Source: an uncultured delta proteobacterium (GTDB taxonomy: Bacteria; Myxococcota; Myxococcia; Myxococcales; Myxococcaceae). From it: a DNA stretch of 64,000 nt. The stretch lies in contig CAVZMH010000020.1 in assembly GCA_963776345.1 (NCBI GenBank), positions 32,001 to 96,000 of the forward strand, in the 5' to 3' direction. The notes below the pieces were generated by a model. That model searched no databases, was not told the origin of the DNA, and worked only from the letters and a program-made list of their open reading frames with translations. Of this stretch, positions 1 to 5,700 are shown piece by piece (positions within the stretch are counted from its first letter, which is position 1; the number at the start of each line of letters is the position of its first letter). Made by a program: the position numbers and the translations under genes.

Positions 1-460
1 ACAGCGCCGTCGCCTCGCCCTCGACGTCCGGGTTGGTGGCGACGATGACCTCCTCCGCCTTGCCGTCCTCCAGCCGGACGAGGAGCTCCTGGATGCGCAG
101 CTGCTCCGGGCCGATGCCCTCCAGCGGGGAGAGCACGCCGTGCAGCACGTGGTAGCGGCCCTTGAACTCGCGGGTCTTCTCCAGGGCCATGAGGTCGGCG
201 ATGCCCTCGACGACGCAGAGCAGGCGGTCGTCGCGCCGCGGGTCGGTGCAGAAGCCGCAGAGCTGCCCCTCGGTCAGCGCGAAGCAGCGGCTGCAGAGCC
301 GGACCTTGCTCTTCACCTCCTGGAGCGCGTTGACCAGCTCGGCGGCGTACTCGGGTGGCGCGCGGAGGATGTGGAAGGCGAGCCGCTGGGCGGTCTTCTC
401 CCCGATGCCGGGGAGCTTCGAGAGCTGGGCGACGAGGCGGTTGAGGGGGTCCGGCGTCAT
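1..460 (-). CDS. recR: Recombination mediator RecR (3' end runs off the window)
   Basis: Manual translation MTPDPLNRLVAQLSKLPGIGEKTAQRLAFHIL...CSRCF...CGFC...YHVLHGVLSPLEGIGP...ATNPDVEGEATA shows HhH, C4 zinc finger and Toprim motifs. ATGA overlap with ybaB. Confidence 0.96.
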   Translation of the reverse strand, partial: MTPDPLNRLVAQLSKLPGIGEKTAQRLAFHILRAPPEYAAELVNALQEVKSKVRLCSRCFALTEGQLCGFCTDPRRDDRLLCVVEGIADLMALEKTREFKGRYHVLHGVLSPLEGIGPEQLRIQELLVRLEDGKAEEVIVATNPDVEGEATAL

Positions 461-777
461 CCGGTGATTCCGGGGATCTTCAGGCCGCCGGAGACCTTCC
501 CCAGCTCACGCTCGGCGAGCTCGCGGGCCTGGGTGAGGGCGGCGTTGACCGCGGCGGCGATGAGGTCCTCCATCATCGCCACGTCGCCAGCGGCGAGGAC
601 CTCCGGGGAGATCTTGATCGAGCGGACGTCACCCCCGCCGGTGGCGACGACCTTGACCCGGCCGTCGCCGGCCTGGCCCTCGACGGTCTCCTCGGCCAGC
701 TCCTTCTTCCGCTGCTCGAGCTTCTCGGTCAGCTTGCTGGCCTGGCGCATGAAGTAGTTGAGGTCGACTCCGGGCAT
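457..777 (-). CDS. ybaB: YbaB/EbfC nucleoid-associated protein
   Basis: 106 aa, EG.AG.G.VKV...MEDLIAAAVNAA motif; canonical dnaX-ybaB-recR order. Confidence 0.95.
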   Translation of the reverse strand: MPGVDLNYFMRQASKLTEKLEQRKKELAEETVEGQAGDGRVKVVATGGGDVRSIKISPEVLAAGDVAMMEDLIAAAVNAALTQARELAERELGKVSGGLKIPGITG

Positions 778-797
778 GGCGTGCTCCCGAGGATGGT

Positions 798-1748
798 TCA
801 GGGCTGCTCGTCGATGACGTCGCTGCCGGGGGCTCCGGTGCGCTCGTGCTCCAGGACCTGGATGTGCTCCAGCTCGCCCCCGAGGATGCGCAGGGTGGCG
901 AGGATGGCCGGGTGGTTGCGGACCGACTGCCCGGTGGCGCGCTCGTGCTCGGCGCGGGCCTCGGCGTCCAGCTCGGCGATGGTCTTGCCGCCGGCGGCCG
1001 CGCCCGGGCTCTCGTCGACCAGGAGGCGGGTGGGTCGGCCGAAGTGAAGCGAGAGGAGGCGCTCGACCACGGGACGTCCGCTCTGCCCGCTGACGGTGGT
1101 GCGGTGGAAGCTGGCGTCGCCGCGGAAGGCGATGCCCACCTCGCCCTCGCGGAGGTGGAGGAGCCGGGCCTGCTTCAGGCTGGCCGAGTGCCGGGGCGAC
1201 TCGGTGGCAACGGTGTCCAGCGCCGCACGCCAGCGTTCGAGGAGCGGACGCGACGGGTCGTCACGTCCGCGCGCCGGGGTGGCGGCCCCGGGCAGGCACT
1301 CGCCGGTGGCGCATCCACCGGGGCTGGTGTCGACCACCAGCGGGGCATCCGACCCCTTCCGGCTCGGTGCGTCCGGGGCGGCCGCCGACGCCGTCGACGG
1401 GCCGCGAGCTCGAGCTGGCTCGTCGTTCGACCCGTTCGCCGGAGCCGCACGGGAGGGCGTTGCGCTCACGCTGGCCTGGACCTGGGCCGGTGCGCTTGCC
1501 GCCGCGGCGGGAGTGAGCGGTCGCGACGATGCGCCCGCTGCGGGCGTGGGTGGTAGCTCGGAGGCGCGCCGGGGCGCGGCGGGCGTCTCGGCACGGGCAG
1601 CGGCGGGAGCACGTGCCGGCGGGGGCTCGGCGGCCTCGGCGCGCCGGGACGGAGTGGTGCCCTCGACGCTGCGGGCGGACGGAGCTCCGGTGGCGCGCAC
1701 CGCGCCGGCGGCGACGGGACCCGGGCGGGCTGGCGGCGGCTCAGCCGC
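798..1748 (-). CDS. dnaX: DnaX tau C-terminal part (Pro/Ala linker plus C-terminal domain), in the +1 frame relative to dnaX
   Basis: Open frame running from the end of dnaX to just before ybaB. Ends ...ERWRAAL...LKQARL...VGIAF...LSLHFGRPTRLLV...VRNHPAILATLRILGGEL, resembling tau C-termini. No convincing start of its own. Confidence 0.75.
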   Translation of the reverse strand, partial: AAEPPPARPGPVAAGAVRATGAPSARSVEGTTPSRRAEAAEPPPARAPAAARAETPAAPRRASELPPTPAAGASSRPLTPAAAASAPAQVQASVSATPSRAAPANGSNDEPARARGPSTASAAAPDAPSRKGSDAPLVVDTSPGGCATGECLPGAATPARGRDDPSRPLLERWRAALDTVATESPRHSASLKQARLLHLREGEVGIAFRGDASFHRTTVSGQSGRPVVERLLSLHFGRPTRLLVDESPGAAAGGKTIAELDAEARAEHERATGQSVRNHPAILATLRILGGELEHIQVLEHERTGAPGSDVIDEQP

Positions 1749-2958
1749 GAAAGGGCTGGGGAGCGGGACGACCTCCGGGCGTCCCGCCGGGCCGGGCGGC
1801 CGCGCGTGTCTCGGGCGCGGCGCCGGGGCCGAGGAGCTTCTCCACCCGGTTGAGCAGCTCGGGGATGGAGGCGGTGGGGGCGAGCTGGACGGCCTTGAGG
1901 AGGGCCATCTCCAGCGCGAGCCGGGGCTGGGCGGCGCGGCCCACGTCCCAGACCGAGCCGTGGACCACGTCGAAGAGGCGCGCGAGCTGGGCCGGGTCGG
2001 CCTCGCGGGCGAGCTCGACGACCATCTTCTGCTCCACCTCGGCCAGCTCGGCGGGCGGCTTGCCGGTGGCGCGGGTGACGAGCACGTGACGGAGCTCGAG
2101 GGCCAGCTCCTCGGCGAGGCGGCGCAGGTCGGCGCCGCGCATGAAGACGTCCTCGACGGACTCGAGGAGCGACCTGGCGTCGCGGCGGACGAGCGCGGCG
2201 GCCATCTGCTGCACGATGGTGCGGTCGATGGCCCCCAGTGCCTCGGCCACCGCGGCGTCGCTGGCGCCCGGGCCGCAGGCGGACATCACCTGATCGAGGA
2301 GGGAGAGGGCGTCGCGCATCCCGCCCTCGGCCTGGCGGACGATGAGGGCCAGCGAGGCGTCGGACAGGCCGGCCTTCTCCTCGGAGGCGATCTGCTTCAG
2401 GCGGGCGAGCATCAGCTCGGCCGGGATGCGCCGGAAGTCGTGGCGCTGGCAGCGGGAGAGGATGGTGTCCGGGAGCTTGTGGGGCTCGGTGGTGGCGAAG
2501 ATGAACTTCACATGCCCCGGCGGCTCCTCGAGCGTCTTGAGCAGCGCGTTGAACGCCGCCCCGGAGAGCATGTGCACCTCGTCGATGATGTAGATCTTGT
2601 GCCGGTCGCGCTGGGGCAGGTACTTGGCGTTCTCGCGAATCTCCCGGACGTTCTCCACGCCGTTGTTGGAGGCGCCGTCGATCTCCGCGACGTCGACCGA
2701 GGTGCCGGCGGCGATCTCCATGCAGGGCTGGCACACCCCGCAGGGGGTCGGGGTGGGGCCGTGGACGCAGTTGAGGGCCTTGGCGAGGAGGCGAGCGGCG
2801 GTGGTCTTGCCGACGCCGCGCGGGCCGCAGAAGAGGTAGGCGTGGGCGACCCGGTCCAGCTTGATGGCGTTGGCCACCGTCCGGACCACGTGCTCCTGGC
2901 CGGTCATGTCGTCGAACGTCTGGGGGCGCCACTTCCGCGCCAGCACGAGGTAGCCCAT
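1741..2958 (-). CDS. dnaX: DNA polymerase III subunit gamma/tau, AAA+ clamp-loader part (405 aa)
   Basis: MGYLVLARKWRPQTF, Walker A GPRGVGKT, zinc-binding Cys cluster, DEVH, SRC motif. Confidence 0.97.
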   Translation of the reverse strand: MGYLVLARKWRPQTFDDMTGQEHVVRTVANAIKLDRVAHAYLFCGPRGVGKTTAARLLAKALNCVHGPTPTPCGVCQPCMEIAAGTSVDVAEIDGASNNGVENVREIRENAKYLPQRDRHKIYIIDEVHMLSGAAFNALLKTLEEPPGHVKFIFATTEPHKLPDTILSRCQRHDFRRIPAELMLARLKQIASEEKAGLSDASLALIVRQAEGGMRDALSLLDQVMSACGPGASDAAVAEALGAIDRTIVQQMAAALVRRDARSLLESVEDVFMRGADLRRLAEELALELRHVLVTRATGKPPAELAEVEQKMVVELAREADPAQLARLFDVVHGSVWDVGRAAQPRLALEMALLKAVQLAPTASIPELLNRVEKLLGPGAAPETRAAARPGGTPGGRPAPQPFRG

Positions 2959-3014
2959 AGGGAGCGCGCCAATGTAACAGCGCAGGTCTCCCCGTCTACA
3001 CTGGCCAGCCGAGC

Positions 3015-4460
3015 GTGACCGACGCCGACGCTGCACCGTTCTCACCCGGGCGGGCCGAGCTCGCCCAGCTGCCGGCCGGAGGCGCGCTGGGGGCATCCCG
3101 GTGGCGCCGCTGGGCGACTCCCGAGCGCTGGGCGGTGGTGCTGGCGCTGGTGCCGGCGGTCAGCGCGGTGGCGGTGCTCGGCCGCCTGCACCCGGACGAG
3201 GTGTACCAGTTCCTCGAGCCGGCCTACGTGCGGGCGCACGGCTACGGGGTGCTCGCCTGGGAGTGGCAGCAGGGGCTCCGGAACTGGGCGGTGCCGCTGG
3301 CGCTGGCGGCGGTGCTCCGGATGGGCGGCTGGCTCGGGCTGACCGACCCCTGGGTGGCGCGGGGGCTCCTGGCGATTCCACTCTGGACGCTCCAGGCGTG
3401 CGGGCTGGTCGCGGCGGTGCGTCTCGGCCGTGGCCGCGCAGGCGCGCTGGGCGGCTGGGCCGCGGCGTTCGCGCTCGGGTGTCTGCCGCTGTTCGTGGTG
3501 GTCGCCGGCCGGACGCTGGGTGAGGCGCTCTCGGCGGCGCTGCTGCTGGTCGCGGCCGAGGCGCTCTCACGCGACGAGCGCCCGCGCGGGAGCGGGCTCC
3601 TGGGCGGCGCCGCGCTCGGCCTGGCGTTCGTGGTCCGCTACGGCTCGTTGCCGGCGATGGCGGCGGCGCTGGCCTGGGTGGCGGCGCGGCGCCGGTGGGG
3701 GTTGCTCGGATGGACCGCGGTCGGCCTGGGCATCGTCCTGCTCGCCCTGGGCGCGCTGGACTGGGCGAGCTGGGGCACGCCGTGGCACTCGGTGGGCCGG
3801 TGGTTCGCCTTCAACGTGGGGAGCGCCGGGGCCGCGCGGACGTTCGGCGCGGAGCCGCCGGGCTACTACTGGCACTTCCTCTGGAGGCAGGTGCCGCTCT
3901 GGGTGTGGCCGGCGCTGGTGCTCGGCGTGCGCTGGCTGCGGCCGCGGCTGGGCGTGGCGGGAGCGATGGCCGGGGTGATGCTCCTCGCGCTGCTCCGCAC
4001 GGCGCACAAGGAGGAACGCTTCCTGTACCCGGTGGTGGTGCTCCTCGTCGCCGAGGCGGCGCCGGCCCTGGGCGCGCTGCTCGCGCGGCTGAAGGCGAGG
4101 TGGCAGCAGGGCACGGTGGCCGTGCTCGCGCTGGCGTCGACCGTCGTGGCCGCGCGGCCGTCGATGGACCTGCGCGGGGATCAGTTCCGGGCCATCGTGA
4201 AGGCGACGCGGCCGGCGGACGTGACCGGGCTGCTCATCGTGAACGAGGGGCTGTGGGGGTCGGGGGGCTTCTTCTACGTGGGGAAGCACATCCCCTGGCT
4301 GACCTGCGACTGGCCGCGGGACGGGGCGTTCCAGGCGGCGATGCGCGACTCGCGCTTCAACCGGGTGGTGACGTTCGAGGACCGCGCGCTGGCGGAGCTG
4401 CAGGGGGCGGGCTTCCGGGTGCTCGGCCGCGAGGGACGGGAGACGATCCTCGGGCGCTGA
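3015..4460 (+). CDS. Multi-TM GT-C glycosyltransferase, Alg9/PIG-B-like mannosyltransferase (GT22)
   Basis: HPDEVYQFLEPA, WEW..GLR and HKEERFLYP motifs typical of Alg9/PIG-B; many hydrophobic segments. Confidence 0.8.
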   Translation: MTDADAAPFSPGRAELAQLPAGGALGASRWRRWATPERWAVVLALVPAVSAVAVLGRLHPDEVYQFLEPAYVRAHGYGVLAWEWQQGLRNWAVPLALAAVLRMGGWLGLTDPWVARGLLAIPLWTLQACGLVAAVRLGRGRAGALGGWAAAFALGCLPLFVVVAGRTLGEALSAALLLVAAEALSRDERPRGSGLLGGAALGLAFVVRYGSLPAMAAALAWVAARRRWGLLGWTAVGLGIVLLALGALDWASWGTPWHSVGRWFAFNVGSAGAARTFGAEPPGYYWHFLWRQVPLWVWPALVLGVRWLRPRLGVAGAMAGVMLLALLRTAHKEERFLYPVVVLLVAEAAPALGALLARLKARWQQGTVAVLALASTVVAARPSMDLRGDQFRAIVKATRPADVTGLLIVNEGLWGSGGFFYVGKHIPWLTCDWPRDGAFQAAMRDSRFNRVVTFEDRALAELQGAGFRVLGREGRETILGR

Positions 4461-4504: not shown

Positions 4505-4521
4505 CGAACGAACCGACGAAG

Positions 4522-4615
4522 AGGAACGGCCGGGACACACGCGAAGGTGCGCTACCGTTGCTTCCTTCCGGACCTGGCGGGGTTCACGTCCCCGCGTCGT
4601 CCCGACCACAAGCTG
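4522..4615 (-). ncRNA. ffs: Signal recognition particle RNA (small type); ends approximate
   Basis: Minus strand carries GTGAACCCCGCCAGGTCCGGAAGGAAGCAACGGTAG (SRP domain IV) enclosed by GGTCGGGAC/GTCCCGGCC pairing. Confidence 0.92.
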
Positions 4616-4637
4616 TTGCTCCAGAGCTCTCTAGCAG

Positions 4638-4724
4638 CGGAGAGGGTGGGATTCGAACCCACGATACCCTTTCAGATATGCACGCGTTCCAGGCGTGTGC
4701 CTTCAACCGCTCGGCCACCTCTCC
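4638..4724 (-). tRNA. tRNA-Ser(GGA)
   Basis: GGAGAGG acceptor, anticodon arm CACGC-CTGGAAC-GCGTG, long variable arm, GTTCGAATC. Confidence 0.96.
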
Positions 4725-4731
4725 AGCCTTG

Positions 4732-4818
4732 CGGAGAGCGTAGGATTCGAACCTACGGTACCGTTGCCGGTACGCCTGATTTCGAGTCAGGTGCCTTCGA
4801 CCACTCGGCCAGCTCTCC
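4732..4818 (-). tRNA. tRNA-Ser(CGA)
   Basis: Anticodon arm CCTGA-CTCGAAA-TCAGG, long variable arm, T-loop GTTCGAATC. Confidence 0.96.
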
Positions 4819-4831
4819 AGCGATTCAGTTG

Positions 4832-5296
4832 TCAGTCTTCCGGGGTCGTCCGCAAGCCCTGGAAGAAACGGGTCAGTCGCGCCGCGCACTCGGCCTCCAG
4901 GACGCCCGAGCGCACCGTGAGCCGGTGATTGTGGGGCAAGGCGTTCAGGTCGAAGAGCCCTCCCAGCGCGCCCGCCTTGGGACTGGGAGCCCCGAAGACC
5001 ACCCGGTCCACCCGCGCCTGCAGTGCCGCGCCGACGCAGAGCGAGCACGGCTCCAGGGTGACGACCAGCGAGACCCCGCTCAGCCGCCACCGGTCCAGCC
5101 GCCGGGCAGCCTCGGACAGCGCCCGCATCTCGGCGTGGGCGAAGGGATCCCGGTCGGTCTCGCGGCGGTTGGACCCGCGTCCGACCACGGCGCCCTCGAA
5201 CACCGCCACCGCGCCGACCGGCACCTCGCCGAGCGCCCCGGCCTGGTCGGCGAGCTCGAGCGCCTCGCGCATGAAACGTTCGTCGGCGTCGTCCAT
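4832..5296 (-). CDS. tadA: tRNA adenosine(34) deaminase
   Basis: GEVPVGAV, HAE, TLEPCSLC, NH motifs. Confidence 0.93.
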   Translation of the reverse strand: MDDADERFMREALELADQAGALGEVPVGAVAVFEGAVVGRGSNRRETDRDPFAHAEMRALSEAARRLDRWRLSGVSLVVTLEPCSLCVGAALQARVDRVVFGAPSPKAGALGGLFDLNALPHNHRLTVRSGVLEAECAARLTRFFQGLRTTPED

Positions 5297-5313
5297 GGAG
5301 CGGAGCGGAAAAA

Positions 5314-5390
5314 TGGCGCGCCCTAGAGGATTTGAACCTCTGGCCTTCGGATTCGTAGTCCGACGCTCTATCCAACTGAGCTAAGGGCGC
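5314..5390 (-). tRNA. tRNA-Arg(ACG), CCA encoded
   Basis: GCGCCCTTAGCTCAGTTGGATAGAGCG...TCGGA-CTACGAA-TCCGA...GTTCAAATC...GGGCGCGCCA. Confidence 0.97.
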
Positions 5391-5496
5391 GTGCGAAGTA
5401 CCCGCAGTTGCACCGTTTTCAAAGACCGAAACAGCGAGCGAGGCGTCCTATCCTCTCGTCTCCCACAGTGCAAGGAGCGCCAGGGACAGGGCGAAG

Positions 5497-5583
5497 CGGA
5501 GAGAGAGGGATTCGAACCCTCGATACCCTTTCGAGTATGCAGGTTTAGCAAACCTGTGCCTTCAGCCTCTCGGCCATCTCTCC
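5497..5583 (-). tRNA. tRNA-Ser(GCT)
   Basis: Anticodon arm CAGGT-TTGCTAA-ACCTG, long variable arm. Confidence 0.96.
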
Positions 5584-5613
5584 TCTCTAGAAGCGCTCAA
5601 AGAACAACGGCGA

Positions 5614-5700
5614 CGGAGGAAGTAGGATTCGAACCTACGAAGGGCGTGAACCCTTGGCGGTTTTCAAGACCGCTGCCTTCAGCCGCTCGGCCATTCCTCC
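5614..5700 (-). tRNA. tRNA-Ser(TGA)
   Basis: Anticodon arm GCGGT-CTTGAAA-ACCGC, long variable arm. Confidence 0.96.

Follow-up and report, generated by a model that had tools for sequence, protein, structure and literature searches.

How can a bacterium make the tau form of DnaX when its only dnaX gene stops after the gamma part and goes on in another reading frame? This question is raised by a stretch of 64,000 nucleotides (nt) from an uncultured delta proteobacterium of the Myxococcaceae (assembly GCA_963776345.1, contig CAVZMH010000020.1, positions 32,001 to 96,000), in the following called the window. An original prediction, made from the letters of the window alone, had proposed that gamma is the default product of this dnaX and that tau results from a +1 shift at UUU-C. 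By comparison with related loci we found a two-frame layout of constant phase, conserved codons at the site and a covarying RNA stem upstream of it. Given the conserved phase and site, a programmed +1 ribosomal frameshift at UUU-C, in which termination gives gamma and the shift gives tau, is the best-supported reading and in our view very probable; that the ribosome shifts at this very site we infer from the sequences. The genome of the window is denoted G000, its family f1 and the sister family f4.

The two reading frames of dnaX

On the minus strand the 0 frame indeed ends after 405 amino acids (aa) and the +1 frame is open to position 798, so that both parts joined would give about 719 aa, as predicted; 719 aa is the joined length for a shift at TTT-C. 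The 0-frame end reads GGA GGT CGT CCC GCT CCC CAG CCC TTT CGC GGC TGA, and the +1 frame stays open from well 5' of the shift site down to the TGA at 800-798. In all 81 loci of the collection described below a gamma-sized product ends after domain III, directly before the 0-frame stop, and in all 74 loci holding both parts the tau C-terminus overlaps it in another frame that is open from the site. G000 carries a single dnaX copy, and a second copy of the C-terminal domain was not found there by tblastn.

From sequence comparison and a structure model, the second open reading frame (ORF) is the tau C-terminal domain. A phmmer search relates it to the C-termini of continuous DnaX proteins with E-values of 1e-5 to 1e-24. 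Pfam matches are weak (DnaX_C in 40 and DUF3646 in 14 of 88 aligned members), and the second part from the window matches DnaX_C below the Pfam cut-off. The model of the domain (predicted local distance difference test, pLDDT, 87) gave as top Foldseek matches 5fkv_E and 5fku_E from E. coli polymerase III complexes (E about 0.01), whose chain E we take to be tau; the tau domain 2aya ranked sixth. No Foldseek match reached an E-value of 0.001 or better, and because DnaA domain I scores similarly the fold match is supporting and not decisive. A search of the PDB sequences with the C-terminal profile gave only weak matches (Thermus-type tau chain 4iqj_M, E 0.96).

Conservation of the split

The prediction had warned that one spurious T would give exactly this picture, and had proposed to look at reads over the site and at relatives. 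Three public runs from as many studies, X1 (possibly the source itself), X3 and X5, have assembled contigs (not raw reads) that span the site with 0 gaps, and a piece from X9 has only 30 letters on one side of it. The metagenome contig L100 is 96.5% identical to the window over 1,714 nt, again with 0 gaps. The phase is identical in eight of the nine other loci of the same genus; the ninth (L023, from the 66% complete genome G004) has further indels including a second break near aa 105. We weigh the conservation of the layout in relatives as more decisive than the contigs, and because of it the split is not regarded as an error. A sequencing or assembly error has a negligible probability: such indels do occur in dnaX of related long-read assemblies (L023, L085, L094), but the phase is the same in 81 loci, single-contig genomes among them, and the independent contigs are free of gaps over the site. 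The split of dnaX into two frames is thereby confirmed as real. Breaks in two genomes of another family, f7 (L085, L094), were tried as further cases and taken as assembly errors, as the element described below is absent, the positions differ and four congeners are continuous.

The 81 loci comprise 71 from f1 (including G000), six from f4, one record titled Myxococcaceae and three metagenome contigs; a scan of named genomes had yielded only four loci. Left out were four duplicates, L023, L085, L094, L103 and L114, loci ending before a stop (L076, L083, L084, L086, L087, L090, L092, L116) and three -1 loci, which are counted apart. Every one of the 81 has an in-frame TTT-C followed by a stop three to nine codons after the TTT (three codons in 65 loci; TGA 65, TAG 11, TAA 5). 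The tau C-terminal domain lies in the +1 frame in 74 of the 74 loci holding both parts, across linkers of 62 distinct lengths (49-1408 nt), and from site to domain the +1 frame is open in all 74 and the -1 frame in 26. The proposed conservation test was hence passed across the whole family.

This family, f1, is the Myxococcaceae, because the record so titled nests in it in our tree and proteins of named genera share its tail. DnaX proteins named as Myxococcus, Corallococcus, Stigmatella, Hyalangium, Archangium and Pyxidicoccus have 395-408 aa and, where inspected, end with the G-G-R-x5-F tail; M. xanthus is not among them by name. The G-G-R-x5-F peptide is kept in 113 of 120 protein matches. 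The metagenomic proteins P0114 and P0119 end with G-G-R-x5-C or -L instead of -F, which at the protein level may point to variant shift codons or to errors.

The shift site

The in-frame TTT-C present in 81 of 81 loci compares with TTT in only 57 of the 776 other Phe codons of the same genes (7%). That TTT is very rare in this DNA, as had been claimed, agrees with its share of 620 in 26,268 Phe codons (2.4%) over 1,649 long G000 ORFs with a high G+C content at third codon positions. The codon after TTT is CGN and the base before it C in 79 loci each, and the C after TTT is retained even where the following codon became CCC or CTG. What is kept against codon bias is a codon that, in the peptidyl (P) site, could re-pair cognately in the +1 frame, as known from programmed +1 shifts. 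A -2 shift was rejected from the sequence because no P-site tRNA could re-pair.

The 5' hairpin and its loop

Upstream of the site the prediction had pointed to GGAGGT, similar to a Shine-Dalgarno (SD) sequence, and its position holds: the hexamer is located at 1776-1771, 18 nt from the TTT at 1752-1750. Exactly this distance is found in all 81 loci, with GGAGGT in 69, GGGGGT in six, GGAGGG in five and GGTGGT in one, and the commonest variants (GGGGGT and GGAGGG) preserve the pairing to the anti-SD. The hexamer is complementary to the 3' end of the G000 16S rRNA with a duplex energy of -10.7 kcal/mol. In the 1,649 ORFs GGA-GGT encodes only 59 of 6,568 Gly-Gly pairs, and GGA and GGT make up 8.7% and 5.6% of the Gly codons. 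As rare synonymous codons are kept, selection appears to act on the RNA.

The original prediction was right about the hexamer and the TTT and overlooked that the SD-like sequence sits in the loop of a covarying 5' hairpin. In the window its core stem is formed by 1785-1780 with 1770-1765, extended by 1788-1786 with 1764-1762 and by the inner pairs 1779-1778 with 1773-1772, leaving an NGGA loop (1777-1774) and a bulged U at 1771. The stem ends 9 nt before TTT in the window and 8-12 nt before it across the 81 loci. In a gap-free alignment of 60 f1 loci, tested with 500 shuffles and with slid controls, the six core pairs show standard pairing in 354 of 354 cells; three of the six carry compensatory changes on both sides, and flanking pairs covary too. 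No shuffle out of the 500 reached the covariation score and the slid controls pair at 38-56%. The f4 stem has a different 5' arm with the register moved by 2 nt and is predicted to form 8 of 8 pairs in five loci, which gives independent support for the hairpin.

A covariance model of the RNA, built on f1, found one strong match in 143 of 150 family genomes (G158 included), and the seven genomes without a match also failed the query with dnaX domain III. In G000 the element is matched once; a second match (L096, E 0.002) is a hairpin with no TTT-C, lying antisense-like within another gene, and was set aside as background. The model recovered dnaX elements in only two of ten f4 genomes and, at strong E-values, not a single one among 28 outgroup genomes. 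Since it was built on f1 and finds only two of ten in f4, it cannot show the absence of diverged forms. No Rfam family covers the element.

Proposed mechanism and its weak points

According to our proposal the P-site tRNA-Phe would re-pair from UUU to UUC, upon which the ribosome would enter the +1 frame and make full-length tau, and ribosomes staying in frame would terminate and release gamma. The ratio of gamma to tau would be set by the element of hairpin, SD-like loop and UUU-C. Provided that the shift occurs, we consider it moderately likely, by analogy with published systems, that an anti-SD tether and refolding of the hairpin stimulate it. The ribosome would melt the hairpin, allowing the loop GGAGGU to pair with the 16S anti-SD; this pairing would slow and strain translocation as the spacer reaches 15-18 nt, and the hairpin would then refold where the mRNA leaves the ribosome, 8-12 nt upstream of the P-site codon, displace the anti-SD and favour the forward slip. 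As to precedents, UUU_Ynn is described as +1-prone in bacteria without a stop (PMC5009743), designed upstream hairpins are reported to boost +1 shifts on 70S ribosomes (PMC6321510), and SD pairing is reported to persist up to a spacer of 21 nt in vitro and to slow translocation (bioRxiv 2020.04.16.045807).

A wider proposal can only be made tentatively, as we judge it somewhat more likely to fail than to hold: the SD-in-loop hairpin might be a new class of natural +1 stimulator that works as a two-state spring (anti-SD tether at a spacer of 15-18 nt, then snap-back at the mRNA exit), tau of the whole family including Myxococcus might depend on it, and a one-base change might have made a -1 signal of it in the sister family.

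Several points weigh against a programmed +1 shift of this kind. With 42% of the Arg codons in this genome, the CGC in the A site is a common codon, therefore no hungry codon is present. Stimulatory SD spacings described so far are 3 nt for +1 and 9-14 nt for -1 shifts (PMC5009743), and the 18 nt found here lie outside both ranges, so that the SD is not a stimulator of the release factor 2 (RF2) type; in vitro, long spacers are reported to give backward and not forward slippage (bioRxiv 2020.04.16.045807). The f4 locus L076 (genome G240), at a contig end, has 21 instead of 18 nt from SD to TTT. The published hairpin effect concerns hairpins that border the E site and a CUU-UGA site in the absence of RF2 (PMC6321510), whereas the stem is 8-12 nt away here. 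Compared with shuffles at its G+C content the window hairpin is not unusually stable (z -1.36), its covariation comes from related genomes with few events, one compensatory pair belonging mostly to one genus, and one stem mismatch each in the weak-scoring L104 and L105 and a bulge in L022 were observed. In four metatranscriptome runs searched over 1600-2000 no contig crosses the site (a piece from X15 ends at 1759), and our literature search found no proteomics or ribosome profiling. Finally, +1 and -1 layouts are both present in f4, and Antonov et al. 2013 (PMC3711429) took the occurrence of both directions within a clade to indicate transcriptional realignment.

Alternative explanations

Such realignment is the main rival, albeit an unlikely one, since both directions occur here and since the 1-nt deletion in IS630 is driven by a 5' hairpin. 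A hairpin in the nascent RNA would make the RNA polymerase drop one base (or add two), and tau would be translated from the edited mRNA. The IS630 element of Roseiflexus likewise combines a 5' hairpin with a net loss of one nt (PMC5009743), but it needs a T5C5 run, and at our loci neither a run keeping most of the 9-nt hybrid nor an adjacent hairpin was found. In 71 of 81 loci, forward realignment by 1 nt would leave the 9-nt hybrid with only two contiguous matches at its 3' end; the best total is 2-7 of 9 compared with 8 of 9 for T5C5. The longest homopolymer has 3-4 nt in 74 of 81 loci, and the stem ends 8-12 nt before TTT and does not abut a slippery run. Slippage in the dnaX of Thermus concerns the same gene, but needs a 9-nt homopolymer, which is absent here. 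Moreover, realignment leaves both the SD-like loop and the invariant C after TTT unexplained.

Quite unlikely is also a split tau, in which an internal start, or re-initiation past the gamma stop, would yield the C-terminal domain as a protein of its own, with hairpin and SD serving coupling, pausing or mRNA stability. Databases annotate only the protein of about 400 aa, and most loci do have some GTG or ATG in the linker, in 33 of 61 one behind an SD match of at least four bases. On the other hand, the linker has no ATG in 37 of 61 loci, in seven of 74 the stretch from the site to the domain's first conserved Trp contains no ATG, GTG or TTG at all, and just one of 81 loci has a start codon between SD and shift site. 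The prediction would have been overturned by a downstream ORF translated from its own start, and no conserved internal start was seen. A split tau would not account for a +1 phase that stays the same across linkers of 62 lengths, or for the invariant TTT-C. In addition, the function of tau needs the C-terminal domain tethered to the clamp loader, as is established for E. coli.

A +1 ribosomal shift that is driven otherwise, by a protein binding the GGA loop or by the nascent G-G-R peptide, is very unlikely. GGA in a hairpin loop resembles the sites of CsrA/RsmA, and the conservation of the G-G-R-x5-F tail given above would suit a peptide effect. CsrA (PF02599), however, was not found in the 31 genomes searched, where the control was positive in three of 14. 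Seven of 81 loops lack GGA and still keep a G-rich complementarity to the anti-SD, and the rare synonymous codons speak for selection on the RNA.

Range and variants in the clade

Outside f1 and f4, tau is encoded by one ORF in 17 loci from other families of the order (f2, f3, f5-f9). In further families of the phylum the matches listed are mostly within long open frames (63 more unlisted; not inspected singly). Among the ten f4 genomes six are of the +1 type, one ends at the site and three need a -1 shift. Our tree is a quick IQ-TREE reconstruction with many open forks, which does not separate a shared origin of the site in f1 and f4 from its loss in f2.

Two of the -1 genomes, which agree with each other, belong to genus g27 of f4 (L080:1232-1291 (+) and L081:2426-2485 (-)). 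Their site is C_CCT_TTC in frame with tau in the -1 frame, and they keep the hairpin together with a stronger SD (8 bp, -14.4 kcal/mol). In the third, the single genome G237 (L082:1250-1309 (+) and 70 nt downstream), a C_CCT_TTT heptamer is followed by a stop two codons on and by a strong 3' hairpin 6 nt downstream, and a tau-like domain, judged by eye, lies in the -1 frame. It is a candidate -1 cassette of the E. coli kind in which the logic is reversed.

A lineage nested in f1 and sister to the genus of the window has a fused tau of 693-703 aa (P0016, P0017, P0174, P0202), and because of its existence the gamma and +1 parts can be said to belong in one chain. The tail of these proteins (residues ~375-410) looks like the 0-frame G-A-P joined to the +1-frame V-A-P, as if one base had been lost in the SD loop. 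This loss is read from protein only, since the metagenome scan returned no DNA of the lineage.

In the single f2 genome G025 a continuous tau gene (L018, ~2625-2690 (+)) has TTT-C at the same position and a +1-frame TAG two codons on; a predicted 5' hairpin ends 4 nt before TTT-C, and TTT accounts for two of its 13 Phe codons. Here gamma could be formed via a +1 shift, that is with normal logic.

Comparison with known systems

The reversed logic that had been proposed, gamma by default and tau by the shift, is the likely one for the dnaX of the window and has precedents. Seventeen two-ORF dnaX genes that would need recoding for tau, all with a -1 shift and 12 of them with a poly-A run, are described by Antonov et al. 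2013 (PMC3711429), and this account is repeated by Atkins et al. 2016 (PMC5009743). As in our loci, gamma ends at a 0-frame stop just past the shift site and tau needs a frame change (PMC3711429); in contrast, our site would shift to +1 at UUU-C, lacks an A run and has a 5' hairpin. The three f4 genomes with a -1 layout also differ from that cluster by their C_CCU_UUY heptamers. Neither the main text of PMC3711429 nor its searched supplements mention a myxobacterium by name, supplement file 1 lying outside the search.

E. coli dnaX, which uses A_AAA_AAG with a 5' SD and a 3' hairpin, shares the gene, the position after domain III and an SD-like element upstream, whereas direction and logic are opposite, the SD is 18 instead of 9-14 nt away and the hairpin is located 5'. 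The combination of heptamer, SD at 9-14 nt and 3' hairpin was seen in none of the 81 +1 loci, in outline in L082 and partly in L080 and L081, and no conserved 3' structure was evident, judged by eye, in folds of the individual dnaX loci. With prfB, the RF2 gene, the proposed shift has +1 re-pairing in the P site and an internal SD in common; in prfB the SD lies 3 nt upstream and a stop occupies the A site, while here the distance is 18 nt, the A-site codon is a sense CGN and the stop follows 3-9 codons on. The slip of tRNA-Phe from UUU to UUY relates our site to UUU_CGN of influenza PA-X and to bacterial UUU_Ynn (YopN-TyeA), and CGN is the next codon in 79 of 81 loci. PA-X differs by its eukaryotic host and its UCC E-site codon, which is found in three of 81 loci here, and our site has a conserved, structured putative stimulator on its 5' side and lies in an essential chromosomal gene. 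The closest likeness to the hairpin are the designed ones of Huang, Cho and Chang 2018 (PMC6321510), 5' hairpins that refold behind the ribosome with a proposed SD-duplex-like action; those are synthetic and adjoin the E site, whereas ours is natural and covarying, lies 8-12 nt from the P-site codon and holds the SD in its loop.

Full-text literature searches gave no report of a myxobacterial dnaX frameshift, though subscription papers, GeneTack, Recode and supplement file 1 of PMC3711429 could hold one; the available text of bioRxiv 2025.10.02.679949 contains no myxobacteria. In the literature searched, reversed logic is thus known for -1 shifts at poly-A, and we met there neither its +1 form, nor an SD-in-loop hairpin at a distance of 18 nt, nor its occurrence in myxobacteria. 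We regard the recoding signal as real; it extends over the whole family, lies in an essential gene of replication and seems to be unannotated.

If the programmed +1 shift is correct, the database entries for Myxococcus, Corallococcus, Stigmatella, Archangium and their relatives show gamma alone (about 400 aa) and lack tau, which holds the replicative polymerase. +1 ribosomal frameshifting would then join the known routes to two DnaX forms and strengthen the case for a selected pair of gamma and tau. It would also be a natural case, backed by covariation, of the 5' hairpin stimulators that were so far shown with designed constructs; its SD spacing falls outside the two textbook ranges, and its hosts include bacteria that are in culture and open to genetics. 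With +1, -1 and fused variants in one clade, it would be directly testable how upstream duplexes set the direction.

The locus and its neighbours

The features of the locus are listed in Table 1. We take the two genes after dnaX to be YbaB/EbfC-like and recR-like, in this order, from their sequences and the usual order dnaX-ybaB-recR and not from a family scan.

Table 1: Features of the dnaX locus in the window.
Feature	Position	Strand	Basis
dnaX 0-frame ORF (ATG at 2958, 405 codons, TGA stop 1743-1741), AAA+ domains I-II and domain III, gamma-sized, ends F-R-G-stop	1741..2958	-	Pfam PF13177, PF00004, PF22608, PF12169
Conserved 5' hairpin	1762..1788	-	fold, covariation, spacing
SD-like GGAGGU in hairpin loop, 18 nt 5' of UUU	1771..1776	-	fixed position in 81 loci; complementarity to 16S 3' end
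Predicted +1 shift site C-UUU-C (tRNA-Phe UUU to UUC), next 0-frame codon CGC	1749..1753	-	81/81 loci
0-frame stop (gamma terminator), 3 codons past TTT	1741..1743	-	stop distance of 3 codons in 65/81 loci
+1-frame ORF without conserved start, Pro/Ala-rich linker and tau C-terminal domain	798..1751	-	frame-openness count, 74 loci
tau C-terminal domain	801..1250	-	homology to C-termini encoded in frame by continuous dnaX genes of other Myxococcales families
Next gene, presumably YbaB/EbfC-like	457..777	-	homologue after the tau stop in most loci

Promoter- or terminator-like sites were not found in window 700-3100. On the 5' side of dnaX a signal recognition particle (SRP) RNA and five tRNA genes are located at 4520-5700 (-), and an ORF for a membrane protein (3015-4460, opposite strand) sits between the SRP RNA and dnaX. 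A short two-cysteine motif (~1335-1290, -) was noticed in the tau linker, which is variable elsewhere; several families have this motif in their DnaX, be it split or continuous.

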